From a virus (lineage: Duplodnaviria; Caudoviricetes), in IMG/VR virus record IMGVR_UViG_3300028129_000010, positions 9,178 through 73,177 of that record: 64,000 nucleotides of DNA. One strand, 5' to 3'. This document shows positions 2,299 through 63,964 of this stretch, piece by piece. Under the pieces are notes generated by a model. The model was given only the letters and a program-made list of their open reading frames with translations. It searched no databases and was not told where the DNA came from. The first letter of the stretch is position 1; each line of letters opens with the position of its first letter. The position numbers were made by a program, and so were the translations under genes.

Positions 2299-2355
2299 AT
2301 CTTATAAATATTCTCTTTTACCTTATTTTAATAATAAATACTAAAAAATAAACAT

Positions 2356-5076: not shown

Positions 5077-5077
5077 C

Positions 5078-5602: not shown

Positions 5603-5614
5603 ACCTATAAATAT

Positions 5615-6682: not shown

Positions 6683-6694
6683 ATTGTATCTTGT

Positions 6695-8785: not shown

Positions 8786-8790
8786 AATTA

Positions 8791-9402: not shown

Positions 9403-9454
9403 TTCTTTTATATAATTATCTTTTAATATACTTTATTTTGTCATTTAGTAAATC

Positions 9455-12199: not shown

Positions 12200-12203
12200 A
12201 CAA

Positions 12204-13118: not shown

Positions 13119-13153
13119 CTTTTATTAATTTTAACTCTTTTATATAAATATCA

Positions 13154-13939
13154 TTACTTTATTATTTTATAGTAACCATTACCATAATTTATTAAATCAG
13201 ACATATTCTTAATCTCACCCATCTGTAGGTGACTTTGGAATGCCGAATTTATACCTCTATCTATATCAACATCACTATACACTGTAGGTGTTGTTGTTAT
13301 ACCAAAAAGATATTCTTGTTTCGTTATAGCTGAAAGTGTTGTGTTTGTATTATTAAAACCTTCACCTTTATAATACATCTCAGTTACTGGTATGTCTATA
13401 TTACCATTAATACTATCTACTATAGGTCTTGTTAACCCACTATATGTTTTATAAAATATACCTCTAGTTTGATTTGGGTTATTTGGGTTTATTGTATAAC
13501 TATCATCACCACCAATAACATATGTAATTGGCATCTGATTATCGTCACTAACCACTCTGTCTACAGCTGTATATGAATTACCTTGGTAGTCGTCAACAGT
13601 ATTATTAGACATATTAAGACCTGGTTGATATACTTGTGTAAATGAATAAGATTTAACTAAATCTAATTTATCTCTGGTATACCCAGTTATAAATAAAGAT
13701 GGTGTGAAATAATCTGATAGTGTTTTATTTACATATCTAACATCTGGAGTGTATGGGTCCATTATTGTTGTTGTATTAGTGTCTGCTGTAAATTCTACAT
13801 TAGTACCAATACCCATATCATCCATATCTTGTTTGAAAAATACATTAACATAGAATGTTGTTGCGGTCATTTGACCCCAAGTATTCTTTTTCCTACTAGT
13901 GTAGTTATCTAATGATATTTTTCTTTTTATTATCTCCAT
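13154..13939 (-). CDS. Hypothetical structural protein (261 aa)
   Basis: Long ORF; its start overlaps the upstream stop (translational coupling). Confidence 0.5.
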   Translation of the reverse strand: MEIIKRKISLDNYTSRKKNTWGQMTATTFYVNVFFKQDMDDMGIGTNVEFTADTNTTTIMDPYTPDVRYVNKTLSDYFTPSLFITGYTRDKLDLVKSYSFTQVYQPGLNMSNNTVDDYQGNSYTAVDRVVSDDNQMPITYVIGGDDSYTINPNNPNQTRGIFYKTYSGLTRPIVDSINGNIDIPVTEMYYKGEGFNNTNTTLSAITKQEYLFGITTTPTVYSDVDIDRGINSAFQSHLQMGEIKNMSDLINYGNGYYKIIK

Positions 13940-14757
13940 TATTGAACCTTTATCCTATATAATTGTACTTGTACCTCCCTTTGGTTATTTGAATTAACAT
14001 TACTACTATAACCTTTATCTATGTAATATCTATACCCATCAACCTCTCTAGTTAATATATATTTTGTGTATAACCTATTGATAGGACCTGGTTCTATCAA
14101 TTCGTTTATTGGTAATTCAACGTCTGTACTCATTAAATTATGTGCCTCACCAGTCTTAGCGTTTAAAAAACTTGCTCTCATATATATCTCTTTACCAACA
14201 GTTGGTAATACTTCGTCTTTAAAATAATATAAAAAGAAGCCTTCACCGTTCTTATCTCTATTTTTAAGTGAATCACCAAGTTTAAACTCTAAGTTTATAT
14301 TGTTAGGGTCTTGTTCTGTTTCACCAATAAGTACCTTAGGGAATAGTGTTATAAAAAATAATAAATTTTGTTTTGTATTAGAATCACTATCATAAAAATC
14401 TAACCTTAAAAATGTTTTAGTAAATGAATTTTTAAGGTTTTGTATATCTTCTAATACAAACTCAGCATTACCCCATGTAGTTGTTGCATAATAATCTTTG
14501 TTATCATCATATAAGTTAACCACATATGTTACATCATCAATTAGATTTTTGTCAATATTAATTGGTAAGAACTTTACTTTTTCATAATCAATTATTTCAT
14601 TTATTGATTTCTTAACTTCAACATCAACAAATTCATTTTCAATAATCTCTGTTTGACCAGCTAAACCAGGGACTTGACTAGTAGGTAAGTTTATGTTGAT
14701 ACTACTATCATCATTTAATGGTCTAATTATTTTATACTTATTAACAAACATCTTCAC
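13939..14757 (-). CDS. Hypothetical structural protein (272 aa)
   Basis: Long ORF overlapping both neighbours in the operon. Confidence 0.5.
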   Translation of the reverse strand: MKMFVNKYKIIRPLNDDSSININLPTSQVPGLAGQTEIIENEFVDVEVKKSINEIIDYEKVKFLPINIDKNLIDDVTYVVNLYDDNKDYYATTTWGNAEFVLEDIQNLKNSFTKTFLRLDFYDSDSNTKQNLLFFITLFPKVLIGETEQDPNNINLEFKLGDSLKNRDKNGEGFFLYYFKDEVLPTVGKEIYMRASFLNAKTGEAHNLMSTDVELPINELIEPGPINRLYTKYILTREVDGYRYYIDKGYSSNVNSNNQREVQVQLYRIKVQ

Positions 14758-16468
14758 TATTTTTAGTTATAAACTTATCTGTTATTCTTTCACCTCTTGG
14801 GTCTGCTGGGTCATCTTTATCAGAATCACCCCCATAATACAACCCATATAAGTTAAATGGGTCTTGTCTTTTCATAACAAAACATATGTTATCATAAATA
14901 TAATGAGAATTGTTTGTGAAAGGATATTCTAATGTTTCACCATTAGCTAATGAAGCACCAATCGTTAATAAATCTCTCCAAATATACTTACCACCATTTA
15001 ACTCTTCAGAATAATCTGGTATATTACCAGTAGTAGCTGTATACCCTTGCTCTATGAAACTAGAATAAAGTCTTATAGGTATTTCATAATGTGGTTTATA
15101 CATGTACCCTTCTCTTCTAGGTCCCTTTGCTAATGTATTACTTTGTGTACTACTATCTCTTTTACTAGTGTTAAATCTATGTAACACATCACTAAGAATA
15201 TTCTCAACTAATTCAGTCTTATTATATTCAACAACATCACCGTAAAACTCAGTATCTGCTGATAGGTCCCCCATCTTTACATCTGGGTTTAATGGTGTGT
15301 GTGTTGTAAATGGTGTGGAACTACCATTATGTATTCTCCTTATATTAGATAACTTTATATCATTTAAGTTCCCAGATAGATATTCTAAGTCTAAACCAGA
15401 TTTAATTTTTGACATAAAGTTATCATCTCTAGTCTTAACAATCGTTAAATATAATTCACTTAATGGTCTACCTAAATTATCTTTAAGGTCAGATATATCA
15501 ACTTCTTTATTAAATGTTACTTGATAATTTTGGTCATTAAATATTGTGTTACTAAAAGCCAATGGGTCTATAGAATAATCTATATCAGTAAATTTTTTAA
15601 ACTTTCTTAAATAATACTCAGATTCATATCCATTCACATATCTAACCATTCTACCAGATATGGTGTTAGTGGTGATAACGGTTGGGTCTACATCTATTGC
15701 AAAATAATTTTCTTTATAATCACCATTATCTAACCCAACCCTCTTAACAGTAAATTCACCGTTTAATTGGTTATCACTCATAGCGCTAATTCTAACTTTT
15801 TCACCAGTACTTAATCCATGTCTTGTTGCGGTACCTAACGCAACCATTGATTTACCACCAACTTCAACCTCTTCAATATTAACGATTAATAAACCGTCTT
15901 TAACTATATGGTGTTGGTCATCAATGCTTGATGGATAAGTAATACATATATCCCAATTCTTTTTAGTATTTGAATTTAAATCAAACCTTTTTTTTGTTGG
16001 TTCGATATTAAAAAATTTTTTAATACCTGGTTTAGTTATATCTGGGTCTATAAACCCAAACCAACCATCTCTTTCTATTAAATTTTCATTTACAGATTCA
16101 AGATAATTTAGTTTTTTATACTTTGAATCAAATTGTTCATTAGAATACGCATTTCTTTTAAAAGTGTCTTGGTCGAATATATCAAGTCCATTACCATTTT
16201 CACTACCCCCATTATCAGAATCCCAGTTTGTGGTACCCGCTGGGTTCATTAATACGTTACTAAAAAGTGGGTTAATAGTAAAAATAAAACGATATCTAGT
16301 ACATAAATTTCTTTCAATATTAAGTTGTTCACCTACATTAAGAACATAGTTTATCTCACCTGGTGGTAATTCTTTGTCATTAGCAACAAAGTTTACATTT
16401 GTGAATGTATTTATATTCACATCACTCTTAGATTTACTACTATTTAAATTAATCTTCTTCCTTTCCAT
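14741..16468 (-). CDS. Hypothetical structural protein (575 aa)
   Basis: Long ORF, coupled start/stop with the 1328-aa gene. Confidence 0.5.
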   Translation of the reverse strand: MERKKINLNSSKSKSDVNINTFTNVNFVANDKELPPGEINYVLNVGEQLNIERNLCTRYRFIFTINPLFSNVLMNPAGTTNWDSDNGGSENGNGLDIFDQDTFKRNAYSNEQFDSKYKKLNYLESVNENLIERDGWFGFIDPDITKPGIKKFFNIEPTKKRFDLNSNTKKNWDICITYPSSIDDQHHIVKDGLLIVNIEEVEVGGKSMVALGTATRHGLSTGEKVRISAMSDNQLNGEFTVKRVGLDNGDYKENYFAIDVDPTVITTNTISGRMVRYVNGYESEYYLRKFKKFTDIDYSIDPLAFSNTIFNDQNYQVTFNKEVDISDLKDNLGRPLSELYLTIVKTRDDNFMSKIKSGLDLEYLSGNLNDIKLSNIRRIHNGSSTPFTTHTPLNPDVKMGDLSADTEFYGDVVEYNKTELVENILSDVLHRFNTSKRDSSTQSNTLAKGPRREGYMYKPHYEIPIRLYSSFIEQGYTATTGNIPDYSEELNGGKYIWRDLLTIGASLANGETLEYPFTNNSHYIYDNICFVMKRQDPFNLYGLYYGGDSDKDDPADPRGERITDKFITKNSEDVC

Positions 16469-19400
16469 TATGGTAAATTAATATATTGCTCTTTATTACA
16501 GCCATTATCATCTGTAATATCTATAACAGCAGCATTAACACCTTGTTTACTTAAAGATATTAGTTCTATAAAAGTATGTGAACCAGCACTAATATCATTT
16601 AATTCATCTATTGGTGCATCAGAAGGGTTAGTTATATAATCATAGTCATATAAATCAACATAATATGGTGGTGTACCACCATTAATTGTGAATGAAACTT
16701 CATATCCAGTACTTCCAGAGATAACTGAGGGTGTTATAGTAATAGCTGGTGGTTCGGTTATTGTAAACCCTTCTGTAACTGATTGGTTTAACGAGTCAGT
16801 ATATGTAACTTCGTAATCACCAGCATATAAATTAAATATTTGAGTATCACCTGTTAGTATGATACTTCCATTTGAGTCTTTCCATTCAATTGTTGAGTCT
16901 CCAGTACCACTACCATCTTGTGGATAAAGCGTTGCTGAACCTGTTTGGTTAAAACACGTTGGTGATTCACCTGAAACAGTTATACTAGGTAAGTCTGGTT
17001 CAGAAAATGATACTAATTCTTCACATTGTGTTTGTATTATACCATTATCTTTAACAACAACTTTATAATCACCAACACCTATATTAGAAAAAGTTGTACC
17101 CATTGCTACTGTTGTTGTGTTATTAATAAGGTTATTTGTGTCGTTATCATATAATTCATATGTGTACCCTGGCACACCACCTTCAACATCAATTATTATT
17201 TTACCATCATCTTCACCGTTTTTTGTTATAGGTTCAATTGTTACGTTACATTGAACACCAGTAGGTCCGCTTACTTGAAATGAACATTCTATTACATTAC
17301 CGACATTATCAGTAGTTTTAAGGTTATATGTTCCAGAATACAATTCAGTTATTGTTGTAATTCTACCGTTATTATTTATATTATTACTAAGTGGGTATTG
17401 TTGACCACCAAATGTTGGTCCATTCCATTCATAAGTTAATGGTTCAACACCACCAATAATTTCAACCTCAAGTGCACCTGTTGGATTATTACCATCATCA
17501 TCTGCTATTGAGTATTCTAGTTGGCATTGGAAGTTATCATCAACTTCCTTAATACAAGGTGTCAAAAATTCTTTATTTAACTTAGTTAGTGCAGTATTAT
17601 TAGACCTTAAACCAAAATAAAAATAATATGAGTTTTCGTATTGCCAAATAGAGTCACTATCGTCTGGGAAAACTCTAAAACTTCGATAGTTTTCATCATT
17701 GTAGTCGCTACTACTGCTACCATCAGCGGCTAGACTACCACTATCAATATAAACTAGAGGTACACTTGTACTCCCAGTTGAATTTAAATAAGAAAAAAGA
17801 CCTCTAACAAATGGGTTTTCAACATCTTGATTATTTATTTTACCGTTTATTGGTCCTTTACCTTCATCTTCTCTATTTTCATCAAGACCCATACCTAATT
17901 CACATAATCTTTTCACATTATTACAATTTCTATAGTCACCCTTTAGGTAAATTCCTATTGGAAATAGATACCCAAATTTAAATAATAATGTTTCACTATC
18001 ACTAATACCAGAAGTTTCTATTGTAAAATCTACTTTTTCATCAAGTAATGGTGGTATATTAAATGTCGTGTCAACTAAAAATCTAGACATCTGTGGTTTA
18101 CCTTCCCAGTCATATTTATTTATGGAACCTAAATTAATAATATCTGTAGCAAACAACTTATATTTACTGTGCTTTGAGTGTGATGCATAATATAATTCAC
18201 TATCAGGGGTTCTCTTTATATACCCTTCTTTTATCTTTTCTGCTCCACCATCACCAAAACTACTTAATGAATCAATATTACTAAAATTAAATTGTTCGGG
18301 TGATTGTGGGCAACTATCAATAATAAAATTATTTTTACATTTATTATCTATTTCACTATCATCATTGTAGTCGCCTAAATCTATATTACCACATTCTATG
18401 TCACAAAATTTTTCACCATTACTTTTATATTTATACTGTAATAAGAATAAATATAGAGAACCGTTAACCCAGTCATTATAAAAATCAAGTTTAAACATGT
18501 TTAAAGAATCTGCAAGACTAACAGCAGAACATCTTAAATATTCACCTACTATAATAGAACCATTTTCACCACAGGCTTTAGTACAATCAATCTTTTGACC
18601 AGCTTCATTATTTAGCTGGTAACAGTAGATTTTATTTGGGTCATCCTCACTCCCTGGGTCTCCATTGGCGAGCGACCATATAAAATATTTTACATTACCA
18701 CAGCTTAATTTAAAGTAAGGGATTAAAGAATCAGCTTGATATTTTTTACAGGCTTTTTTATCACAATCACTACAATCCAAATTTGGATTATTACATAAAT
18801 CACTTTTATCGATATCTGATAAATCAGCATCTAAATCTTCATAATAAGCTTTAGCACAATCAATATCAGTTTGATTTTCATCTTTTTGATATAATTTATA
18901 ACACCTACAAGCAGCTCTCTTTTTCTTATTAGTTGGCCACTGTATTAAACAACCTAATTTTTGTATTCCCCAAACTGCCTTAACTAATGGGGTTAATATA
19001 AGGTTTAATAAATATATTACCGACCTATTTAGTATCCAAACAATAGTAGTTATAGTGCTTAGTATTGCCAATAAAAAAAACGCTAAAACATCTACATTAA
19101 CATCAATTCTATTAAATGGGAATGGACTGTTACTCCCTGGGTCATCGGTAACTTTAATACCAATAAAATTTCTATTATCAATCTGCTTATTTGGTTGAAC
19201 TCTAGTTATTAGATTTTTAACACTATATAGTTTATTCCAAGATAATTCTGTAAAACTTTCATCTTTGGTTGTACTATCAAAAGTATAATCAGCCTCTTGA
19301 TGTGATTCTGGGTTGTTTGGTATCAAGAATTTAGCTCTTCTCCTTAATTTACCTTCTGTTCCTGAAACATCCATACCGATTCTAAACCTAACTTTTGATT

Positions 19401-46043: not shown

Positions 46044-46120
46044 AATAAAATCTTTTTATTATAAATACTATGTTAACTAAAAATTTTAGAAAATAAATAG
46101 TTGATAAAATGAAAAAAATA

Positions 46121-52890: not shown

Positions 52891-52923
52891 AACAGTTTTT
52901 ATTTATAAATATTAACAATATAT

Positions 52924-53620: not shown

Positions 53621-56461
53621 TTAAATATCATCGAAACTTGCACCAGTGTTCATAATGTTGAACTCAACACAAATGAATTCTAAAGCTCTTGTTGGTTTCA
53701 AGAAGATTCTACCACATAATTCGTTTCTATCTCTAGATTCTGGAGAATCATCAAGAACCACTCTAAAGTCTGTAAGACCTCTATCAGCTCTAATGTTATC
53801 TAAGATTGGGTTAACAAGACCTAAGAACTGGTTTCTTACGATATCATCATTTTGTTCGAATAACAATCTGATTGATACAGCAGAAATTAATTTTCTAGCT
53901 TGTAATAAAAGTCTTCTAACATTAATTCTATTAAGAGCAGTATCTTTAACTTGAAGTGTTTTGTTACCCCAAATCTTAATACCTTCTGAAGCGAAAGTAG
54001 CAATTGGGTTAACTCTACCATCGTAAAGAGTATCTCTTTCTGCAAGTGTTAATTTCTTTCTTGCTTTAATAGCTTGAACATCACCTCTGTTTACACCAGC
54101 AACTGCGAACCATGGGAATGAAATGTTGTCTGTAAGTGCAATGTTTCTTACTACGTCTCTTGTAGGTGGAACGTAAATGTAAACATTGTTTTCAGCATCA
54201 TTAATCTGAATCCAAGGCCAGTAAGTAGCTGTATAGTTAGAGTCAAATTGACTATCAAGTGTATCAACAACATCCTCTGGTAATAAAACATCACCAGCAG
54301 CATCTGTATCTGGAGTAGTAACAATATAAAGTGAATCCGCTCTATCTTGTTCTACCATTTCGATAGCTTCCTCTACTAAGTTACTATTATCAAAAGTATC
54401 GATACCTGGTGTAGAGAATATATTAACATTTGTAGCTTCTGGGTTTTTGAAAGTCCAAATAGCCTCTAAATATGCGTAGTAATCAGAGTTAATACCTGTA
54501 TCACCATTTGTTAATGCTCTTTGTGTAAATACATCACTTGATAAACCAGCTTGACCAGCAGTACCATTTATAATATACTTATCTCTATTTGTTCTTCTTG
54601 TTCTATGTACATCCCATCCATCAAAACCACCATATGGTGCGAATGTGAATTTTCTAGCATATACTTTTTCATAGTCAGTACCAACAACACCAGAATCACT
54701 CCTAAATTCAGCGTTACCTGTGTCAAATTCGTAAACTGGACTATAAGTACCACCAGTATTATTAATTACGATTTCAACATTATCAATAGTTGCACCAGTA
54801 GCGTCAACATCCATATGGAAACCTTTAGTTAAACCAGTCCATTCATTTAAATCACCAACTGTTGGAATACCCTTATAATCGAAAAAGTCTTGGTCAATAC
54901 CTTTAGTCTCAGAAAGACCTAAATAGAATTTTCTCTTATTTTCGAAAGCACCATAAGTTTGTTTATATTCAATTGTTGGTGTTTGAACTGAAGTGTTACC
55001 ATTAGTTTGGTAATCTCTAACTGGGAATCCTACGAAACCAGCTGGGAACGCATCAGAAGTATCTGATTCTTCCTCAAGTTCAATTAATACATAACTTGAA
55101 CGTGAAGCAAATTCACCATCAAGTGTACCAACTCTCTTAGCAACATAGTTATTAGACGTTGGGTCCATACTACATCTTGTAAATCTTTCAAATACTACAG
55201 GTTTAGCATCAGTATCATCATAAGCTCTGATTTCAATATCAAATTCTTTATCATTTAATCTAATATTCTTGATAGATATTTTAAATTGTCTGTTAGCAGC
55301 ATCACCATCAGATATTGTGTGAAGTCTGAAAAGTCTTAATACCTTATTACCTCTTAACTCAGACACAACCCAAGGACTAACCGCTGGTTGATATTCTTGT
55401 AAATAATCATTAAAGTCATCACCATAGTTAACTAATGAGTCAATATTAATACCTCTCACTTGGTCATTATCAATATAGTCTTCTAACATTTCACTAAATA
55501 ATTCTTCAACGAATAATGCAGTCTGACCATCTTGAGCAGCTCTACCTAATACTTTAGTAATATAATTATTTTTAGTCTTATCAAGTGATAATGAATACGA
55601 GAAATTACCTTGAGTTGTAGAATCACCAGTGATTGTGAAATTACCTAATACATTAGATTCAGCTGTTGTAACTGAAGGGTCAAACCCTATATCAGTAGAA
55701 CCTGTAATTTGATGTCTAACGAATTCATCAGCATCAACAGTTGCTCTACTTCTTAATAATGCAACAATCTTATCTTCTACATTTGAGAACCCAGCTCCAG
55801 AGTAGTGAACTGTAACCCCTGAAGTTGTACCAGTTTGTAAAGAACCAAAAAGTCCTTCAGCAACTACTTTATGATTAATACTAGCACCACTAAATGTATC
55901 ACCAGACTTATCGAAAACAGGTCCTATAAGTGTTGGTGTAGCAGCAGTTGAAGCTGTAGCTAAATACGCTAGTTCATTTGTTAATAAACCTTCATCCCAT
56001 AATGATTGTACTAATGGGTCACTAGAAACAACAGTAGTAAGAGTACCACTATCAGCAGTATATGAAATTAAAGTAGCATCTGTGATACCACCACCAGTAG
56101 TACCAGTAGTAGAACCATCTAAAGCTGCGTCAAGTGAAACACCCCAAGCTAAACCAGCATCATAACCAGAAAAACCAAGTACTCTTGTTACGAATAATTG
56201 GTTAGATTGTGATAAATACGATTTAGCGATGTAAGGTAATTCATATTTAGGCGCACCTGTATCTTTTATTTTTGTAGCGTTGAGCCCACCAAAAAATGAT
56301 GTGAACTCGTCATAGTTTGACACGAAAATCGGTTGGAAAGCTGGGCCCTTAGTTGTCTCACCAACTAAACCCAAAGTTGTTACACCAACTTGTCGCGTTA
56401 CGAAAGTTAAGTCTCTTTCTGAAGTATAAACTCCAGGACTTACAAATACCTTATCAGCCAT
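53621..56461 (-). CDS. Contractile tail sheath protein (946 aa)
   Basis: VSPGVYTSERD; GETTKGPAF; TYWPWI; WFAVAGVNRG; LYDGRVNPI; IWGNKTL...RINVRRL; IFLKPTRALEFI.VEF. Confidence 0.95.
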   Translation of the reverse strand: MADKVFVSPGVYTSERDLTFVTRQVGVTTLGLVGETTKGPAFQPIFVSNYDEFTSFFGGLNATKIKDTGAPKYELPYIAKSYLSQSNQLFVTRVLGFSGYDAGLAWGVSLDAALDGSTTGTTGGGITDATLISYTADSGTLTTVVSSDPLVQSLWDEGLLTNELAYLATASTAATPTLIGPVFDKSGDTFSGASINHKVVAEGLFGSLQTGTTSGVTVHYSGAGFSNVEDKIVALLRSRATVDADEFVRHQITGSTDIGFDPSVTTAESNVLGNFTITGDSTTQGNFSYSLSLDKTKNNYITKVLGRAAQDGQTALFVEELFSEMLEDYIDNDQVRGINIDSLVNYGDDFNDYLQEYQPAVSPWVVSELRGNKVLRLFRLHTISDGDAANRQFKISIKNIRLNDKEFDIEIRAYDDTDAKPVVFERFTRCSMDPTSNNYVAKRVGTLDGEFASRSSYVLIELEEESDTSDAFPAGFVGFPVRDYQTNGNTSVQTPTIEYKQTYGAFENKRKFYLGLSETKGIDQDFFDYKGIPTVGDLNEWTGLTKGFHMDVDATGATIDNVEIVINNTGGTYSPVYEFDTGNAEFRSDSGVVGTDYEKVYARKFTFAPYGGFDGWDVHRTRRTNRDKYIINGTAGQAGLSSDVFTQRALTNGDTGINSDYYAYLEAIWTFKNPEATNVNIFSTPGIDTFDNSNLVEEAIEMVEQDRADSLYIVTTPDTDAAGDVLLPEDVVDTLDSQFDSNYTATYWPWIQINDAENNVYIYVPPTRDVVRNIALTDNISFPWFAVAGVNRGDVQAIKARKKLTLAERDTLYDGRVNPIATFASEGIKIWGNKTLQVKDTALNRINVRRLLLQARKLISAVSIRLLFEQNDDIVRNQFLGLVNPILDNIRADRGLTDFRVVLDDSPESRDRNELCGRIFLKPTRALEFICVEFNIMNTGASFDDI

Positions 56462-56612: not shown

Positions 56613-56768
56613 ATGTCTATAAAACGTACAAAAAACCTTAAAATCACGCCAAACACACATAAGGCGCTTAAAGAATATTGTCAGGAAAACGGTCTTAAGA
56701 TGTTCGCATTTGTTGAAAAAATAATCAAGGAGTCATGTAAAAAACCAACTGACATTTATGGTGAGTAA
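56613..56768 (+). CDS. Ribbon-helix-helix DNA-binding protein (51 aa; missing from ORF track)
   Basis: Hand translation: MSIKRTKNLKITPNTHKALKEYCQENGLKMFAFVEKIIKESCKKPTDIYGE*. Alternating beta strand (KNLKI), helix A, G-L-K-M turn and helix B. Confidence 0.8.
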   Translation: MSIKRTKNLKITPNTHKALKEYCQENGLKMFAFVEKIIKESCKKPTDIYGE

Positions 56769-56805
56769 TTTTAATTTTTATTAGTATTATAACATATTTA
56801 TAAAT

Positions 56806-57990
<1,185 letters not shown>

Positions 57991-57995
57991 AAAAT

Positions 57996-58835
57996 ATGAA
58001 AGATTTAATAAAACTTTATGAAAACTTTTGTTTTTTAAAGGGTATCCCTTTTAAATTAGATGATAGTGTTAAGAGTTATGATGATACAACTCTTTTTTGT
58101 CCAGCTGGTATGCAACAATTTAAGGACAAATTTAAAAATCCTGACAACACCACAATAGCAAATATTCAATCTTGTATTAGACTTAATGATTTGGATGAAA
58201 TTGGTGATGGCACCCATATGTTACATTTTAAAATGATTGGGTTATTTTCTTTTGGTGAAATGACACTTAATGAGGCTGTTGATTTTTGGGTGGAGTTTAT
58301 TAGGGGTTACTTAGGTATAAAGATTGATTATGTTACGATTCATCCAGATAAATTTGATAATTGGAAGTGGTTATATGAACGTCATCGTATCCCTATTAAA
58401 TTAGATAGTGAATGTATTTGGTCTGATGGTGAAATGGGTGGTTATTGTACAGAGTTTTATCATGATAATGTTGAGATTGGTAATATCGTAAATACAATGG
58501 ATAAGTTTATTGATGTTGGTTTTGGATTCTCCAGAATTAATGATATTATTAATGGTAAAAATGAATTAACAAAAAACGATATACTTATTGACGCTATTAA
58601 CAAGATAATTGAATCTGGATTTAAACCAGGACCACAAAAACAAGGTTACATACTTAGGAAACTTCTCAGACAACTATATGTAGGTGGTGGTAGTATTGAA
58701 CACCCATTATTTACAAAAGAGGTTGAAAGACAAGAAAAGGCTAAGGTTAGATACGAAAGACTTAAAGATAAACATTCTGATAAACCAAAAGAATGGTGGT
58801 TTGATACTCATGGTATTGACTTAGACGAAATGTAA
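57996..58835 (+). CDS. Minimal alanyl-tRNA-synthetase-like protein (catalytic core plus trimmed helical domain, no editing or C-Ala domain; 279 aa)
   Basis: DDTTLFCPAGMQQFK (motif 1); QSCIRLNDLDEIG...HFKMIGLFSFG (motif 2); EIGNIV; IDVGFGFSRI (motif 3); GYILRKLLR; FDTHG. Confidence 0.85.
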   Translation: MKDLIKLYENFCFLKGIPFKLDDSVKSYDDTTLFCPAGMQQFKDKFKNPDNTTIANIQSCIRLNDLDEIGDGTHMLHFKMIGLFSFGEMTLNEAVDFWVEFIRGYLGIKIDYVTIHPDKFDNWKWLYERHRIPIKLDSECIWSDGEMGGYCTEFYHDNVEIGNIVNTMDKFIDVGFGFSRINDIINGKNELTKNDILIDAINKIIESGFKPGPQKQGYILRKLLRQLYVGGGSIEHPLFTKEVERQEKAKVRYERLKDKHSDKPKEWWFDTHGIDLDEM

Positions 58836-58884
58836 TCTAATTACCCTTAATTCAGTGTAATTAATTTAACACAACAGAATAATT

Positions 58885-59565
58885 ATGAATATAATATTAT
58901 TAATAAGAAGTTATGATAGAGGTAATTACTTAATAAATACGATATCTTCTATAATTAAATCAGATATTAATTTATGCGATAAAAGATACATATATGACGA
59001 TAACTCAAAAGATAAAATAGTAAAAGAAATATTAGAAGGAAAAGATTTAAAATTACCAAACAAAGAATTTGATGTAGTTATTGGTGATAAAAATTTAGGT
59101 TGTAAGTATTCATTCATAGAAGCATTAAAACATATTAAAAACGAAAATAAAGATAATAAAGATTATCTAGTTATTACTATTGATAATGATGTTATAGTCC
59201 AGAAAGACTGGATTAATAAAACATTAGATATGTATGATAAAATAAAAAATATCTTTAATACTGATAATTTTTTATTAACAGGTTTTAACCCAACAAACTC
59301 TCATTTAAACATGATTAAAGATTATGGTAATTTCTACCAAAAAGAAACTTGTGGCGGTATTAATTTAATATTCCATAGTAATATGATAGATTTTATTATG
59401 GAAGGATGGGAGAAAGGTGATAATGACTGGGGTGTTATAGATAAATTAAAAGAGAAAGGATTTCCCTTATTTTGTTTTAAAGAATCTATAATTAACCACA
59501 TAGGTAAGTTAGGTTTATTTTCAGGTAATTTGGGTTATGACGTAGATAAAAAATTTAAACCTTAA
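58885..59565 (+). CDS. Glycosyltransferase, GT-A fold / GT2-like (226 aa)
   Basis: IRSYDR..YL..TI.SI; IYDDNSKD; N.G; ITIDNDVIV (DxD); DWG; INHIG. Confidence 0.8.
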   Translation: MNIILLIRSYDRGNYLINTISSIIKSDINLCDKRYIYDDNSKDKIVKEILEGKDLKLPNKEFDVVIGDKNLGCKYSFIEALKHIKNENKDNKDYLVITIDNDVIVQKDWINKTLDMYDKIKNIFNTDNFLLTGFNPTNSHLNMIKDYGNFYQKETCGGINLIFHSNMIDFIMEGWEKGDNDWGVIDKLKEKGFPLFCFKESIINHIGKLGLFSGNLGYDVDKKFKP

Positions 59566-60197
59566 ATATCGTAACCATATTTTTTAGATATTCCTTTTAA
59601 TTCATTATATAACTTACTATTTTTAATATCATTTATTAAAGTTTCGTTATCTATTTTTATCACCTTTTCTTCTTTTTTTGTGTTTACCTTTTTATCTAAT
59701 GGTTTTATTTTTTTACCTAAAAATTTGGATAGTGAATCATAATTAATATCCTCTAAATTTAATATTAATCTGTTTAAATTATAACCCTCAATCATTTTAA
59801 TCCAACCAATGTAATAAGACATAGTTTTTTCAACTGAGGATTCATAATTTAAATCTACATATTTTTTAATTAATTGCACATATTCTGAGTTTTTCATATT
59901 TTCATCACTAAAAACATCTAATTCAACCCATGATTTAATCACATTTATTGGGTTTCTAACTATATGGATAAATTTTATATTTTCGTTATATCCTTTAATT
60001 GTTGTTATAAAAGGTACCGATAACCAACTACTCTCTGATTTTAAATTGCTAGTTATAATTTGTTTTCTATAAGATTCAAGTGTTGCTGGAACACCAAAAA
60101 CAGATTCGTGACCGCAACGAATATTATTCATAGTCAAAAGCTCTGACATAAATCCAGTCCCACTCCTACCTGTTCCAATAATTAAATAATCAATCAT
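59562..60197 (-). CDS. PAPS-dependent sulfotransferase-like protein (211 aa)
   Basis: IIGTGRSGTGFMSELL (5'-PSB loop); CGHE; IHIVRNP..VIKS (3'-PB); LEDI. Confidence 0.75.
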   Translation of the reverse strand: MIDYLIIGTGRSGTGFMSELLTMNNIRCGHESVFGVPATLESYRKQIITSNLKSESSWLSVPFITTIKGYNENIKFIHIVRNPINVIKSWVELDVFSDENMKNSEYVQLIKKYVDLNYESSVEKTMSYYIGWIKMIEGYNLNRLILNLEDINYDSLSKFLGKKIKPLDKKVNTKKEEKVIKIDNETLINDIKNSKLYNELKGISKKYGYDI

Positions 60198-60210
60198 ACT
60201 TCAAATTTTT

Positions 60211-63200
60211 TTAAAAATCCCAACCATCCCTTAAATGACATCTTACATAACCAAATAAATGTATTTGTTTACCATTTTTATATTTGTCTAACATAGTTTT
60301 ATAAAACAAGATATCCTCACTTGTATTACCTTCACTAACTACATTAGTCCATTTAACATCACATGTTTTTTTATGTGATATTAAACCAGGTGATTGTAAA
60401 ATCAAACTTCTTTTAACATAACTCCTAACCCACCTACTATCTAATCCATTAATCAAAGATGATTTATTAGTTAAATGTCTATCAAAAAGCACATTATAAA
60501 ATTTAACCTTATTAGGTGTTAATACCGCAAAATTATCCCACCAACATCTATTTATTATCCAATCTAAATTAAAATTATATTCCCAATACTTTAAAAGTAT
60601 CTCTAAATAATTTTTTGTTAAAAAATCATCACTATCCATATAAGTTATAATATCACCCTCAGACATATCAACACCTATTTGTCTAGGTTCACCAACATAA
60701 TTTATAGTTTCAGAGTCTTTTTCATACATTTTTTTTGAGCTATTCTCATATAACTTAAATTTAACTCTATCATTTTCCTTATAATTTTCATTATATAATT
60801 TTTCAGTAATTTTACAATTATCTGAAATAACAATTAACTCTGTATTCTTATTAGTTTGGCTTAAAAATGAGTTAACCGCCCTAATAAACTTTCTTTCTGG
60901 TTCAGTTCTACTCCCTGGGTAATCACCTAAATAAGATTGCATTACAACGGATATTTTTATACCTTTCTTACGATTGTAAGATTTTCTCCAATGCCCTACA
61001 TGATTATGTATAAAATATTCATCACATTCATTTTTGGTTAAATATTTTGGTTTATCATCTAACTTGTCAAAAACCTCACTTACAACGTCTGGACCAGTTG
61101 TATACAAAATGTCATAATCTTCCTTTATCTCTAAATCTTTTCTTTCCTTACACAAATCTAATATTTTTTGCATATTTTTAGAATGTGGTTTAGACATCAT
61201 AAAATAGTTTGAAATCCTAAGATTACATTCAGGTATATTATTTCTAATAGGTAATTTTTTAGTGGTTTCACAAAAATAATCATCAGTTGTTGTCTCCTCA
61301 AAAAATAAGTCTTCTAAATGATTATTTTCTTCATATGTTTTATAAAACCCTTTTTTACTTAATATATCTAAATCAACATATATACCACCAAAATACTTTA
61401 AAATGATATATCTAGCATAATCAGATTTTTGTATATTATGTACATAACCTGTGTAAATATCTACCTCTTCCTCATTCATTATTTTTAAAACATCACTTTC
61501 CCTCCAAAGTATTGTATGAAAGTTTGGGTTATATTTTTTAAACTCTTTTAAATCTGTTCTTGAGTTACTTGGGTATTCATTATCATATAACAAAAGTCTA
61601 TGAATTATTGGTGGTATTTTATCTTGATTCTTATATTCTTTTAAAATGTAATTTACCCCCATAAAATCATGATAAAAATCATAAGACACTTCTTCATTAG
61701 TTTCTTCTGAGTCAGACTTAATAACATCAACCAGTGAAGTCTTTGGTGATAATATCATACCTTCATTTTCCTTTAAGTATTCTCTAATTAATAGTTTATA
61801 ATTTTCACTATTAAATAAATCTTTTAAACCCTCATATAATTCAGACTTAAACCCAATATTTTTAAAATCTAAATTAGAATGTGCTATATAATCCTTTTTA
61901 AAATGAATAACCTTACGTAAAGTTTCATTAGTTAAATCTTTAACAAAACCAGTTATTATAGAATTATCATATAGTTTATCACTAAAATACTCAAATGTTT
62001 TAAATAATTCAACTAACCAATCTTGTCTCATTATTAAATCATTATCTAACTTTATTAAGTAATCACACTTAAAGTTATTATATAGAATATCTAAACCTAA
62101 TTTTTGATTTTGAAGTTTTGTATCTTTATTTGTTTTTGAAATTTTAATAGTATTAAATTTTGTGAATTTATAATTATTAATTAAATCTATAACATCTTTA
62201 GGTAAATGGTTATCACATATAAATAAAACTAATAATTTTTTATTTATAATCACATTATTTAAACTATCTAACATTTTTTTAGTTATATGATAATTATCAG
62301 TTATGTGAATAAATAAACCACTATCATATTCTAAATTAATATTTTGATATTCTTCTGGTGTGTAACCCTTATCATTTATTAAAACACCATCAAAAGAATC
62401 GAATAAAGGTAAATTGTTTTTAGTGTTAAGGTTGAAATATGAAACACCTTCGTATTTTTTACTATATTTTATTATTCTTTCATAAAGGTTATTATAACCC
62501 CATGTATTATCTGAATGGACTCTATAAACATAAAGTTCTGGTTTATATAAGACTGATAAATCGTCTTTTATATTTTCAATAAAAGTAGTATCTTCACCTT
62601 TTTTTAACGATGGATATAAAGTTTTAAGTTCGGACTTTTTATACATAAAAGAACCCTCCCAACCAATAAATGAAATTCTTTTACATTCTAATAATTCATT
62701 TTTTACATTATCATAAACTAACCAACTACTTAATATTGACCCATTTTTATTATTTATTTTTAAGTCTCTAAATTGTTCCCAAAGTCTTAAAGGGTGATAC
62801 CAATCATCATCGTCCCATTGACATACATATTCACCACTAGATTCATTTATAGATATATTTCTTAACTCACCTAAAGTTTTTTTATTTTTTGATGAATCTA
62901 CTTCAATAAATTTAATATCGATATTATTTTTAAATTCTTTAATTACCTTGTTTATCTCAGTATTATCGTTCTCGTAAATAATTATTAATTCCTTATTTGG
63001 GTATATTTGTTTATTATAACATGTTATAGTGTTTTTTAATAAATCATAACCATTTTTAGTGACACATAAACAAGATATTTTAGGTAATAAAACCATCCCA
63101 CTTTTTTTGTAATATTCTTTAGTATGGTTTGAATTTTCACTATAATTTAAATTTAATAAATCATGAATTGCCACCACTTTTTTTATGTATTCCAATGAAG

Positions 63201-63879
63201 AGTAATGTTTATCTTGCCACCAAGTACCATCATATAAATGCATTAAGTATGAATATTGAACGTTTTTTGAAATAACCCCATTTGATATTTCATAAAAAGT
63301 CATAGGGTTAAAATATAAATTATCTAAAATAGTTATTTCATTTTTATTTTCATATCTTTCATAAACCCTATTAAAAAAAAGAGGCCCAGTCATATTTAAA
63401 ACATCATCAGTATCGTTTGAATTAATTTTATCTGAATCTATGTTTCTAACAATATCATCTATCAATTCTTTTATAAAACTAGTATTAGGTTTGGAAATAA
63501 TTACAGCATTAGATAGAATATAGTCAGTGTTAAAATTTAAAGCGTTTTTCCTATCCTCCTCACATATAACAACATCATTTATATTCAATAAATCTTCAAT
63601 ACTCTTTAAAGGTAATACATCTAAATCAACATATATCCCACCAAATTTATAAACATATAAGAGTCTTATAAAATCTAACTTCATAACAACCCTATCAAAT
63701 TTATCTATAATGATTTTATATTGTGGAAAATATTTATTTACAAACGATTCATTAGTTTTATCACTATAGAATTTTACTTTTAACCCTTTATTTAATAAAA
63801 CCCACCTCTTTAAAATGAATTCTTGTTTTTCTGTTAAGTTTTCATCTTTCCAAGTAATATGTAATATTTTATTGTTCAT
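60211..63879 (-). CDS. Multidomain glycosyltransferase: GT32-like, GT2, GT2-like, GT32-like, GT2 (1222 aa)
   Basis: DxD motifs: GGIYVDLDV, EYVCQWDDDDW, DYLIKLDND, GGIYVDLDI, ITYMDSDDF; KISCLCVT and KISVVMQSY GT2 N-termini; IPPIIHR GT32 start. Confidence 0.85.
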   Translation of the reverse strand: MNNKILHITWKDENLTEKQEFILKRWVLLNKGLKVKFYSDKTNESFVNKYFPQYKIIIDKFDRVVMKLDFIRLLYVYKFGGIYVDLDVLPLKSIEDLLNINDVVICEEDRKNALNFNTDYILSNAVIISKPNTSFIKELIDDIVRNIDSDKINSNDTDDVLNMTGPLFFNRVYERYENKNEITILDNLYFNPMTFYEISNGVISKNVQYSYLMHLYDGTWWQDKHYSSLEYIKKVVAIHDLLNLNYSENSNHTKEYYKKSGMVLLPKISCLCVTKNGYDLLKNTITCYNKQIYPNKELIIIYENDNTEINKVIKEFKNNIDIKFIEVDSSKNKKTLGELRNISINESSGEYVCQWDDDDWYHPLRLWEQFRDLKINNKNGSILSSWLVYDNVKNELLECKRISFIGWEGSFMYKKSELKTLYPSLKKGEDTTFIENIKDDLSVLYKPELYVYRVHSDNTWGYNNLYERIIKYSKKYEGVSYFNLNTKNNLPLFDSFDGVLINDKGYTPEEYQNINLEYDSGLFIHITDNYHITKKMLDSLNNVIINKKLLVLFICDNHLPKDVIDLINNYKFTKFNTIKISKTNKDTKLQNQKLGLDILYNNFKCDYLIKLDNDLIMRQDWLVELFKTFEYFSDKLYDNSIITGFVKDLTNETLRKVIHFKKDYIAHSNLDFKNIGFKSELYEGLKDLFNSENYKLLIREYLKENEGMILSPKTSLVDVIKSDSEETNEEVSYDFYHDFMGVNYILKEYKNQDKIPPIIHRLLLYDNEYPSNSRTDLKEFKKYNPNFHTILWRESDVLKIMNEEEVDIYTGYVHNIQKSDYARYIILKYFGGIYVDLDILSKKGFYKTYEENNHLEDLFFEETTTDDYFCETTKKLPIRNNIPECNLRISNYFMMSKPHSKNMQKILDLCKERKDLEIKEDYDILYTTGPDVVSEVFDKLDDKPKYLTKNECDEYFIHNHVGHWRKSYNRKKGIKISVVMQSYLGDYPGSRTEPERKFIRAVNSFLSQTNKNTELIVISDNCKITEKLYNENYKENDRVKFKLYENSSKKMYEKDSETINYVGEPRQIGVDMSEGDIITYMDSDDFLTKNYLEILLKYWEYNFNLDWIINRCWWDNFAVLTPNKVKFYNVLFDRHLTNKSSLINGLDSRWVRSYVKRSLILQSPGLISHKKTCDVKWTNVVSEGNTSEDILFYKTMLDKYKNGKQIHLFGYVRCHLRDGWDF

Positions 63880-63929
63880 ATCTTTCTATATAAATATTAT
63901 CTTTTTAATTAAAATAATTTTAATACAAT

Positions 63930-63964
63930 AAAAAAAGGGAGTCCCGAAAGACTCCCCTTTTTTT
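63930..63964. terminator. Bidirectional intrinsic terminator
   Basis: A7-GGGAGTC-CCGAAA-GACTCCC-C-T7. Confidence 0.85.

Follow-up and report, generated by a model that had tools for sequence, protein, structure and literature searches.

By analogy, the closest known counterparts of the locus described here would be the glycogene clusters of giant viruses and the virion glycosylation of mycobacteriophages. Fibril glycogene clusters of giant viruses hold multidomain glycosyltransferases (GTs) together with genes of sulfate metabolism (PMC9614988), the latter being present in the clusters of Moumouvirus and Cotonvirus (Megavirinae fibril; PMC9614988, PMC7826918), and in protein A064R of PBCV-1 a sugar O-methyltransferase domain is joined to two GT domains (PMC9614988). 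With mycobacteriophages, O-glycosylation of the virion was reported by Freeman et al. (2023, Cell Host Microbe; as cited in PMC12619734 and PMC12801897). Viral proteins that bear on other genes of the locus are Rki of RB43, a small phage J-domain protein (Perrody et al., 2012, as cited in PMC12619734), and TuAlaRS, the mini-alanyl-tRNA synthetase (mini-AlaRS) of Tupanvirus, which still charges tRNA-Ala and a microhelix (PMC10036535).

The window analysed here, a stretch of 64,000 nucleotides, derives from an uncultured marine jumbo myophage, and two gene cassettes within it adjoin the tail sheath gene. We propose, at a probability of roughly 0.55, that the region is a recombinational mosaic in which a variable junction of the phage carries two functionally separate accessory cassettes, one for glycan assembly and the other for independent host takeover. 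What has been observed comprises the genes present, the identities of their domains, the folds, the arrangement in operons, the mosaic breakpoints and the absence of co-occurrence.

Organization of the Locus

The genes described in an initial annotation of the window were all recovered as open reading frames (ORFs), and the features of the region are as follows.

53621..56461, minus strand: tail sheath gene, 946 aa (PHROG 23 tail sheath, E 2.6e-61); context, in neither cassette
56613..56768, plus strand: ribbon-helix-helix (RHH)-like ORF, 51 aa; weak RepB-RCR_reg match (E 0.0012), below cut-off
56795..56802, plus strand: promoter-like motif (A)TATTTATA, 3 nt ahead of the J-MT start codon
56806..57990, plus strand: J-MT fusion, 394 aa; J-like domain (HPD), poly-Asn linker, DOT1-type SAM methyltransferase (MT)
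57373..58832, plus strand: mosaic segment of 1.46 kb (MT domain and mini-AlaRS), common to L002-type phages and missing in L067
57996..58835, plus strand: condensed AlaRS, 279 aa (PF01411, E 6e-20)
58885..59565, plus strand: GT2, single-domain GT-A, 226 aa (PF00535, 35.6 bits); final gene of the plus-strand unit
59562..60197, minus strand: PAPS-type sulfotransferase, 211 aa (PF00685 Sulfotransfer_1, 26.9 bits vs cut-off 22)
60211..63879, minus strand: five-domain soluble multi-GT, 1222 aa (Pfam profiles and DXD motifs)
63130-63879, minus strand: multi-GT domain 1, GT32-like
62380-63129, minus strand: multi-GT domain 2, GT2
61600-62379, minus strand: multi-GT domain 3, GT2_226-like
60880-61599, minus strand: multi-GT domain 4, GT32-like
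60211-60879, minus strand: multi-GT domain 5, GT2
63889..63896, minus strand: promoter-like motif TATTTATA, 10 nt ahead of the multi-GT start codon
63930..63963, no strand assigned: terminator-like hairpin, strong and bidirectional (15-bp stem, T-runs on both strands)

Judging from its sequence, the 51-aa ORF is possibly a regulator heading the plus-strand unit. The hairpin provides insulation between the multi-GT unit and the gene past the window edge. Genes for the synthesis of nucleotide sugars or PAPS are not encoded within the window.

The promoter-like motif had been taken as a late-type signal that the two outer large genes of the region share with structural genes. As TATTTATA it shows no over-representation (26 copies in the window against 24 expected), and the enrichment holds for ATATTTAT, which, counted in gene orientation at no more than 60 nt upstream, precedes 13 of the 44 genes, compared with 1.4 under shuffling (none of 1000 shuffles reached 13); its reverse complement lies upstream of 1 of the 44. 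The motif is indeed common to structural genes (sheath, tube and baseplate) and to the J-MT and multi-GT genes, with ATATTTATTA upstream of the sheath gene and TATAAATA 11 nt upstream of the 51-aa ORF, but it also stands before a DnaB-like helicase gene, and hence a "late-only" timing is unproven. The J genes of three relatives (L067, L069 and L002) are preceded by the same motif as J-MT.

The Glycan Cassette

The multi-GT comprises five GT-A domains, each with a DXD motif, in the order GT32-like, GT2, GT2_226-like, GT32-like and GT2. Four of these exceed their Pfam cut-offs, while domain 3 was recognized only through its GT2_226 similarity and DXD context. With the 226-aa GT2, a paralogue of domain 3 with its DXD at residue 100, they account for the approximately six GT-A domains in two genes that had been predicted. 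The sulfotransferase gene follows the multi-GT gene in the same unit after a gap of 13 nt, and the GxGRSGT and RNPxxxxxS motifs of its product are invariant across five homologues. An AlphaFold model of this protein (pLDDT 88.5) returned 62 PDB matches at E <= 0.001; among the matches listed, all are sulfotransferases with heparan sulfate 3-O-sulfotransferases on top, and the modelled fold is confirmed as that of a sulfotransferase with carbohydrate sulfotransferases as best matches. No transmembrane segments were found in the GT2, the sulfotransferase or the multi-GT, and all three are soluble.

These three genes constitute a real, rare and conserved cassette. Their order and 12-13 nt spacing are kept in the metagenome contig L067, with protein identities to the window of 95% (GT2), 89% (sulfotransferase) and 71% (multi-GT). 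Full-length relatives of the multi-GT (48-71% identity) came only from metagenomes; none was found in IMG/VR, and no relatives of the glycan-cassette genes were found in 50,697 GenBank phage records. The cassette has a motif of its own and an upstream terminator, and it sits among tail genes. Given its conservation, the solubility of its enzymes, its position and the shared motif, the building and sulfation of an oligosaccharide in the cytoplasm is a reasonable reading, and a sulfated oligosaccharide made there is its most likely product. The six DXD-containing GT-A domains would add sugars in succession from nucleotide-sugar donors, with retaining GT32-like domains alternating with inverting GT2 domains, and the co-transcribed sulfotransferase would then sulfate the glycan with host PAPS.

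On circumstantial evidence, a virion protein is favoured as the target of this cassette. The putative acceptor would most likely be a phage structural protein, namely the surface domain of the sheath, the fibres or adhesins, and a sulfated glycan coat on the virion would result, by analogy with giant viruses and mycobacteriophages. The richness in Ser and Thr that had been attributed to the tail proteins is borne out by only three distal proteins, at 21-24% S+T, and by the sheath between residues 101 and 300 (20-32%), the tube protein being ordinary (12%). At the same junction in relatives, other GT cargo is located beside adhesin- or fibre-like genes: L069 has nine GT32/GT2 domains next to a mosaic 1088-aa protein, and in L002 a protein of DUF2827, a family of putative adhesin glycosyltransferases (bioRxiv 10.64898/2026.01.22.700529), adjoins LamG and DUF285/LRR proteins. 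A separate island of another relative, G004, holds three GT2 genes, two Sulfotransfer_2 genes and one GT25 + 2OG-oxygenase-like gene, and a collagen-repeat protein follows directly.

The J-Domain Fusion and the Condensed Alanyl-tRNA Synthetase

The prediction of a methyltransferase and a J domain in one gene proved correct; in the 394-aa protein, a DOT1-type MT (PF08123, 50.6 bits vs cut-off 23) stands behind an HPD-containing J-like N-terminus. The latter is 36-49% identical to stand-alone J-domain proteins of L002, L069 and L067, homologues that match Pfam DnaJ weakly; the J-like part of the window protein stays below the DnaJ cut-off. In L002, J and MT are two genes with a PrsW protease gene in between. 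The DOT1-type MT also gives weak TrmB/tRNA-MT matches, which, together with its fusion to a J-like domain, suggests a protein or RNA substrate.

The AlaRS paralogue had been described as catalytic-only. It is not; the 279-aa protein is a condensed version of the full aminoacylation domain, comprising the catalytic domain and a reduced tRNA-recognition domain. In VIA-align (Z 23.6), residues 1-279 of the AlphaFold model (pLDDT 89), that is, its whole length, were placed on residues 1-411 of an E. coli AlaRS fragment, and the whole model also maps to residues 59-458 of A. fulgidus AlaRS in its tRNA complex. Collinearity of the mini-AlaRS profile with AlaRS extends through the "PSNxxxGYVLRR" helix. 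No alanine-pocket residue varies among 25 members of what is a large family (about 1000 clusters at 90% identity); R62, W142, N163, V165, D173, G175 and R180 are invariant, and a C-terminal W-(F/Y)-D-T-x-G motif is conserved. Retention of the skeleton of the tRNA-recognition domain points to a tRNA rather than a sugar as acceptor. At other loci, the neighbours of mini-AlaRS are replication, tRNA or chaperone genes (RecA, 5'-3' exonuclease, DnaB, gp32, ligase, PTH2, Thg1, PNKP and a class II aaRS core), and in L005-type phages an RmlC-like gene overlaps its stop codon. The J-like domain, the DOT1-type MT and the condensed AlaRS would form an independent host-takeover unit outside the glycan pathway, in which the J-like domain may engage host DnaK while mini-AlaRS would make Ala-AMP and most likely charge tRNA-Ala.

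Mosaic Structure and Co-occurrence

The two cassettes part company at the DNA level. Positions 58857-63816 of the window (GT2, sulfotransferase and multi-GT) are 83% identical to L067, in which the J-domain gene abuts GT2 with neither methyltransferase nor AlaRS between, and the alignment runs to 57428 and resumes at 58857. Window positions 57373-58832, on the other hand, are 85.7% identical (blastn) to 9374-10837 of the phage contig L002, with flanks devoid of similarity, and L002 is without the GT2, sulfotransferase and multi-GT genes. These breakpoints identify the MT-AlaRS segment as a 1.46-kb insertion or deletion. The AlaRS is likewise kept without the glycan cassette in L003, L004 and L012, the last having only a 35-residue remnant of multi-GT after its AlaRS, and multi-GT is missing from five related phage records, one of them a 100%-complete, 279-kb genome with AlaRS; the six related junctions share ancestry, and their gene contents are not independent samples. 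Relatives of these GT and sulfotransferase genes were found within 10 kb of none of 24 other mini-AlaRS loci (tblastn and HMM search), and mini-AlaRS was found at 0 of 73 IMG/VR and 1 of 80 metagenome GT loci. In L069, a seven-domain GT directly follows AlaRS in the same direction, at a junction with different cargo in each relative, and the two are probably co-transcribed.

Alternative Interpretations

These distributions bear most heavily on the pathway originally envisaged, in which all five genes build an oligosaccharide and add sulfate, methyl and alanyl groups to it, mini-AlaRS being a tRNA-independent alanine donor. Clustering of the genes speaks for it, as do the apparent inclusion of GT2 in one transcription unit with J-MT and AlaRS, and the genes directly after AlaRS in L069 (multi-GT) and L005-type phages (RmlC-like). 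An aaRS paralogue that acts on a sugar is known in MshC, which ligates Cys to GlcN-inositol, and the joining of GT domains to a sugar O-methyltransferase in A064R (PMC9614988) offers a further parallel. The co-occurrence data nonetheless largely refute this model, which we consider very improbable: L067 holds the glycan cassette with MT and AlaRS cleanly missing, four relatives show the converse, the pairing was absent from the 24 AlaRS and 73 IMG/VR GT loci, and the MT-AlaRS segment stands out as a discrete indel that has its own closest relative. The tRNA-recognition elements of AlaRS, its replication and tRNA-processing neighbours elsewhere and the substrate suggested for the J-fused MT weigh in the same direction. 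Given the L069 adjacency and the L005-type overlap, some looser functional connection of AlaRS with sugar genes is conceivable.

It is conceivable, if rather unlikely, that during infection the glycan cassette serves to make or lengthen a sulfated polysaccharide carried by a lipid or by a glycan already present in the host envelope and leaves the virion undecorated, the aim being receptor masking (superinfection exclusion, fewer progeny lost to debris) or an altered infected-cell surface. Bacterial relatives of multi-GT are soluble multidomain enzymes of 1100-1750 aa (GT32-GT2-GT4-Anp1), and the polymerization of lipid-linked polysaccharides by soluble multidomain GTs in bacteria fits remodelling of the host surface equally well; those relatives, however, are orphans outside polysaccharide export clusters, and no flippase, ABC exporter, polymerase or initiating phosphoglycosyltransferase was found in or near the cassette. 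The GT32-like domains match Caps_synth weakly and below threshold (PF05704, 18.2 bits vs cut-off 24.5 for domain 4 of the window protein), a cut-off passed only by the extra GT domains of L069. GT cargo differs among close relatives, as expected under a surface arms race, and the GT-rich islands of marine cyanophages, usually interpreted as serving cell-surface modification (PMC12801897), add to this side; against it, tail and fibre genes surround both the cassette and its counterparts in relatives, the G004 island being beside a collagen-like protein. Glycosylation of modified phage DNA bases as a means of evading restriction is very improbable. Some phages encode GTs that attach diverse glycans to DNA (Pyle et al., 2024, as cited in PMC12619734), and the window has nucleotide-metabolism genes and a Mom-family protein, but the cassette is not linked to any hydroxymethylase or base-modifying enzyme, and it is dispensable in close relatives with shared replication genes. 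We know of no DNA precedent for a five-domain GT assembly line with a sulfotransferase.

Comparison with Known Systems

Within the proposed host-takeover unit, the J part of the window protein has the HPD signature in common with Rki of RB43, and both presumably recruit host DnaK; unlike Rki, it shares a polypeptide with a DOT1-type methyltransferase, the two being connected by a run of Asn. The phage mini-AlaRS is shorter than TuAlaRS (279 vs 461 aa), with its tRNA-recognition domain cut to a few helices, and it keeps the Asp-Thr-x-Gly in which TuAlaRS has Thr in place of Asp (PMC10036535).

For the glycan cassette, mycobacteriophages, as represented in the papers that cite the original work (PMC12619734, PMC12801897), likewise have GT genes beside structural genes; for the products of these GT genes, decoration of capsid and tail proteins with a resulting change in surface recognition is assumed or shown. 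These phages are small siphoviruses infecting Actinobacteria, with one or two GTs of a single domain and, according to the same papers, glycans on the C-terminal ends of their capsid and tail-tube subunits, whereas the window of a marine jumbo myophage encodes six GT domains and a sulfotransferase, and its tube protein lacks an S/T-rich tail. Unlike the giant viruses, the source of the window is a tailed phage of bacteria without sugar-nucleotide synthesis genes nearby, and the chlorovirus PBCV-1 proteins A064R and A111/114R have three transferase domains against five GT domains per chain here. The sulfotransferase model matches sulfotransferases of giant viruses, one of these matches being a 1202-aa Caps_synth protein from Megaviridae. 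As in the window, giant viruses encode soluble GT-A enzymes with several DXD domains per polypeptide; they build glycans on virion proteins in the cytoplasm, a process to which the window cassette may be likened from its genes, and they carry decorating enzymes (methyltransferases and sulfate-metabolism genes) alongside the GTs, with cargo that varies by clade (PMC9614988, PMC7826918).

Gene Organization and Promoter-Like Signals

The window, with a GC content of about 30%, comes from an uncultured marine jumbo myophage and encodes baseplate, tube and sheath genes together with a T4-like replication block of RNR, gp32, a DnaB-like helicase, a 5'-3' exonuclease and a RecA-like protein. Next to the sheath gene, a plus-strand unit of four genes and a minus-strand unit of two converge:

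53621-56461, minus: tail sheath gene, neighbour of both converging units
56613-56768, plus: RHH-like ORF, 51 aa, first of the four plus-strand genes
56806-57990, plus: fusion protein (J-MT), 394 aa, with an HPD-bearing J-like domain joined by an Asn run to a DOT1-type methyltransferase
57996-58835, plus: AlaRS-like protein (mini-AlaRS), 279 aa (Pfam)
58885-59565, plus: GT2 (GT2_226), 226 aa (Pfam)
59562-60197, minus: sulfotransferase, 211 aa (Pfam), 13 nt after multi-GT
60211-63879, minus: glycosyltransferase (multi-GT), 1222 aa (Pfam)

The stop codons of the sulfotransferase and GT2 genes overlap, and the multi-GT unit is insulated by a hairpin, strong and bidirectional, at 63930-63963. The gene inventory of the initial annotation was correct, as Pfam, a five-part domain split of multi-GT, and the model and PAPS motifs of the sulfotransferase all agree. 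The sheath (946 aa) is ~160 residues longer than that of the related phage genome G001 (789 aa), and the extra region (residues 101-300), with a Ser+Thr content of 20-32%, could conceivably serve as an acceptor surface for glycans. The proteins encoded at 121-5602 are S/T-rich as well. A Pfam census of the window ORFs in 1-36000 also recorded a Mom-family protein, a candidate for DNA modification; an OmpA-family domain; and a protein with SprB repeats, a Bacteroidota gliding-adhesin repeat and possibly a clue to the host. The "Moraphages" were considered as the lineage and rejected, these being freshwater phages without tRNA synthetases (PMC12619734).

As a word, TATTTATA was rejected as over-represented across the window (26 found, 24 expected). 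Counted in gene orientation and at most 60 nt upstream, ATATTTAT precedes 13 of the 44 genes, compared to 1.4 expected from shuffles (0/1000 of which reached 13), and its reverse complement occurs upstream once. The motif takes the strand-specific form (A)TATTTAT(A/T)(A/T) and lies 4-45 nt ahead of start codons (e.g., at 2303-2310, 5606-5613, 13143-13150, 46060-46067, 52904-52911, 56795-56802 and 63889-63896). Most of the 13 genes are structural; sheath, tube, baseplate, J-MT and multi-GT are among those so preceded, as is a DnaB-like helicase gene. It is common to the related contigs L002 (phage), L067 (metagenome) and L069, where it lies upstream of the J gene. The motif is read here as a genuine phage promoter-like signal common to structural genes; given the helicase gene, late-specificity is not implied. 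The T4-type TATAAATA was rejected as a late promoter, its presence in 2 of 44 upstream regions being at the level of chance.

The Glycan Cassette

GT2_226, the sulfotransferase and multi-GT constitute a conserved block (the glycan cassette) of three soluble proteins with their own promoter-like motif; the two GT proteins have six GT-A domains between them, and the third protein is a sulfotransferase of PAPS type. Split into five parts, multi-GT gave Pfam domains in the order GT32-like, GT2, weak GT2-like, GT32-like and GT2, with d1, d2, d4 and d5 scoring 36-45 bits against gathering cut-offs of 23; GT2_226 scores 35.6 bits. The third domain, d3, reaches 14 bits only and is paralogous to GT2_226, being homologous to it (E 0.001) and sharing with it a 'YL.I.D.D....DW' context. 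A DXD motif was found in the expected context in every GT domain, and all are assigned to the GT-A glycosyltransferases (Glycos_transf_2 or Gly_transf_sug), d3 by homology. No membrane-spanning segments were found in the cassette proteins examined. The five-domain architecture is unusual, since three transferase domains in one protein have already been termed rare (PMC9614988).

The sulfotransferase scores 26.9 bits against PF00685 (cut-off 22), and its PAPS-binding motifs, G8-x-G10-R-S-G-T14 and R81-N-P...S89, are invariant in the five known relatives. The PDB matches listed for its model (pLDDT 88.5) are all sulfotransferases, led by heparan sulfate 3-O-sulfotransferases (TMq 0.55-0.60). Pfam, the 5'-PSB and 3'-PB motifs, and the fold thus agree on a PAPS-dependent sulfotransferase, the activity being predicted. 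A word-indexed search of 5.8 billion proteins returned only those five relatives; none was found in GenBank phages, nor was a PHROG family. Structural matches of the model include proteins of cyanophages S-SCSM1 and P-SSM7 and of giant viruses; phage GT islands and phage-annotated sulfotransferases are already known.

The order, orientation and spacing of the three genes are conserved in L067, where multi-GT (71% identical) is separated by a 12-nt gap from the sulfotransferase (89%), with a convergent GT2 (95%), and the DNA is 83% identical over 4989 aligned bases; the conservation of the unit is judged from this one second genome found. Seven full-length relatives of multi-GT (48-100% identity) were recovered, from metagenomes only, with those at 48-54% located on contigs of 32-35 kb (P0123, P0126). 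No full-length multi-GT was found in IMG/VR, where single-sequence scans returned one GT2-domain match (L033) for multi-GT and nothing for the sulfotransferase, and a profile scan returned 73 loci, all single-domain GT2 or GT32 relatives at no more than 45% identity. Among 50,697 GenBank phage records, no cassette relative was found save a 144-residue GT2 match to multi-GT in two 735-kb huge-phage records. High-GC metagenome contigs (L070, L072, L087, L088 and L106) encode bacterial orphan proteins of 1100-1750 aa in which the same GT32-GT2 start as in the phage enzyme is followed by GT4 and Anp1-like domains; no polysaccharide export clusters were found around them. One protein of this set is rich in RTX repeats, and in L088 an adjoining 1660-aa ORF is also present.

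Separation of the Cassette from the Mini-AlaRS

The initial annotation had placed all five genes in a single pathway, in which a glycan built by the GTs would be decorated with sulfate, methyl and alanyl groups. The pattern of co-occurrence argues against this. Mini-AlaRS loci were collected from IMG/VR (23) and from one huge-phage record, and at none of the 24 did tblastn or six-frame HMM searches within 10 kb find a relative of any of the three cassette genes. Among 91 non-redundant proteins encoded near AlaRS, Pfam identified RecA, 5'-3' exonuclease, DnaB, gp32, DNA ligase and RNR, as well as PTH2, Thg1, PNKP, class II aaRS core, Clp, PrsW and DnaJ. In the 25 families listed, out of 42, a link to sugars was seen twice only, in a DUF2827 protein and an RmlC-like epimerase. 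No multi-GT was present in five related records, a complete 279-kb genome included, and their GT2 genes lie 30-60 kb or more from AlaRS. The contigs L002, L003, L004 and L012 carry AlaRS without glycan genes, and L067 carries glycan genes without methyltransferase or AlaRS. Approached from the GT side, the pairing was seen at 0 of the 73 IMG/VR loci, which also had no sulfotransferase, and at 1 of 80 metagenome loci, namely L069. On this gene-content evidence, the five-gene 'alanyl-glycan system' does not hold.

DNA-level identities indicate instead that the window is a mosaic of an L067-like backbone and an L002-like MT-AlaRS segment. Window positions 58857-63816 and 56778-57428 (the J gene) are 83 and 67% identical to L067, respectively, and the 1.46 kb in between (57373-58832) are 85.7% identical to L002. 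In L067, the J-domain gene lies directly beside GT2, with no methyltransferase and no AlaRS; the gene order in L002 is J, PrsW protease, MT and AlaRS, and the GT cassette is absent. The run of 11 Asn that joins the J-like domain to the methyltransferase (57373-57447) is the exact point where similarity to L067 ends and that to L002 starts. The J-MT fusion was apparently made at this junction, and it seems to be an incidental result of a recombination in which the PrsW protease gene seen between J and MT in L002 was lost. Its J-like domain has the HPD motif ('VTHPDK') and no Pfam DnaJ match at E <= 0.05; the J homologue of L002 scores 19.6 bits against the DnaJ cut-off of 27.8, and the best homologue has an E-value of 3.2e-6. 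The methyltransferase belongs to the DOT1-type SAM enzymes by PF08123 (50.6 bits; cut-off 23) and motif I ('DLGCGLG'), with weak tRNA-MT matches also. A Protein Atlas look-up of J-MT gave scores of 0.81, to be read as leads only, and the nearest clusters were stand-alone viral DOT1-domain proteins.

The contigs L069, L004, L012 and L002 have a common upstream synteny that ends in J and AlaRS, after which the cargo differs: L069 carries a 1686-aa seven-domain GT and two GT32 genes, L004 nothing after AlaRS, and L002 a gene for a DUF2827 protein with those for LamG and DUF285/LRR proteins behind it. Just after the mini-AlaRS of L012, a 35-residue remnant (L012:10879-10983) is 80% identical to the N-terminus of the 1686-aa GT of L069, which is evidence of a recent loss of GT cargo. 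DUF2827 proteins have been proposed to glycosylate bacterial adhesins in the cytoplasm (bioRxiv 10.64898/2026.01.22.700529). In view of this and of the differing cargo among relatives, the junction is interpreted as a hot spot of exchangeable GT cargo beside fibre- or adhesin-like genes. The nearness of GT cargo to AlaRS is positional. Since relatives that are otherwise syntenic carry different GT sets here, the junction stands out as a site of frequent surface diversification.

The Mini-AlaRS

In an alignment of 25 family members, all residues of the alanine/ATP pocket are kept, with invariant equivalents of R69, W170, N212, V214, D235, G237 and R242 (E. coli AlaRS numbering), and motifs 1-3 together with this pocket place the protein among the class II AlaRS. 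The helix 'PSNxKQGYVLRKLLR' and, at the C-terminus, the motif 'EWW(F/Y)DTxG' are likewise kept in the alignment; the family as a whole is large (997 clusters at E <= 0.001). In a profile search against solved structures, collinearity with AlaRS extended as far as the first helix for tRNA recognition. The AlphaFold model (pLDDT 89) matches the E. coli fragment with all of its 279 residues, which cover positions 1-411 of that fragment (Z 23.6), and it also matches positions 59-458 in the AlaRS-tRNA complex of A. fulgidus (Z 19.0). The tRNA-recognition domain is reduced to a few helices, with the Asp-containing C-terminal motif conserved; the position of the Asn that reads G3:U70 is Pro in the window protein, Asn being the family consensus. 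[quoted passage not shown] With this full-length alignment and a reduced tRNA-recognition domain, the description of the protein as catalytic-only was not borne out; the family motifs, collinear profile and model point to a condensed aminoacylation domain. The mini-AlaRS of Tupanvirus, which charges tRNA, has 461 aa (PMC10036535); that of the phage is much smaller at 279 aa.

The related phage genome G004 encodes a G3:U70 tRNA-Ala(UGC) 12 kb from its AlaRS, and no tRNA-Ala was found among the tRNA genes typed in G001 and G005 (6 of the 22 G005 matches were left untyped). At L024:10001-10829 (IMGVR_UViG_3300044846_005229; 279 kb, with terminal repeats), the mini-AlaRS is frameshifted at about residue 101 and the surrounding ORFs are unusually short, for which errors in sequencing, a pseudogene or a different genetic code could each be the cause; none of the typed tRNAs among the 22 matches of this phage (six untyped) is tRNA-Ala. 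A homologue with 56% identity in a 635-kb huge phage (L001; LR745206.1 355965-380768, at 11208-14227) is flanked on one side by a class II aaRS-core-like protein of 246 aa (tRNA-synt_2b) and on the other by a Thg1-type tRNA-His guanylyltransferase, apparently a cluster of miniature tRNA enzymes. The mini-AlaRS deserves study as a tRNA-directed enzyme, not as an alanine donor for glycans.

Function and Significance of the Cassette

The cassette enzymes would assemble an oligosaccharide sequentially in the cytoplasm, which would then be sulfated. Phage structural proteins are the favoured target on circumstantial grounds: tail genes surround the cassette and structural genes share its upstream motif, genes resembling those of adhesins or fibres adjoin the corresponding cargo in relatives, an island in G004 adjoins a collagen-repeat protein, and giant viruses offer parallels in multidomain GTs, sulfate-metabolism genes and structural matches to the sulfotransferase model. 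Multidomain GTs and sulfate-metabolism genes both occur in giant-virus fibril glycogene clusters (PMC9614988). A role in remodelling the host surface is the main rival, which is the usual reading of cyanophage GT islands (PMC12801897) and with which the soluble multidomain GTs of bacterial relatives would agree; the position among tail genes and the fibre-like neighbours lead us to prefer structural proteins. Glycosylation of DNA seems unlikely.

The G004 island (L034, G004:C1:154000-173000, ORFs 4536-18144) lies about 50 kb from the mini-AlaRS of this 205-kb phage. Three of its genes encode GT2 enzymes and two encode Sulfotransfer_2 proteins, while in a further one GT25 is fused to an OGFOD2-like 2OG-oxygenase domain. 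A gene for a collagen-repeat protein of 523 aa comes directly after them, and the island is a candidate phage system for collagen hydroxylation and glycosylation that recalls the collagen-modifying enzymes of mimiviruses.

More specifically, the five-domain 'assembly-line' GT, the helper GT2 and the sulfotransferase may build a sulfated-oligosaccharide coat on the sheath or fibres, with relatives altering this surface by swapping GT sets at the junction, a tentative proposal to which we assign a probability of roughly 0.3. If true, bacteriophage virions would for the first time be known to bear a sulfated glycan. Virion glycosylation by virus-encoded enzymes is established in chloroviruses, mimiviruses and some mycobacteriophages; to our knowledge, it is almost unexplored in marine phages, and sulfated virion glycans have been suspected only from the gene content of giant viruses. 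The cassette is compact, its three genes encoding six GT domains and a single sulfotransferase, and it provides a tractable test of phage sulfated glycans and their targets, because its products are soluble and could be expressed heterologously. The negative result on the pairing of AlaRS with glycan genes matters as well. Set beside the fibril glycosylation of giant viruses, a phage coat of the kind proposed would be the counterpart in a bacterial virus.
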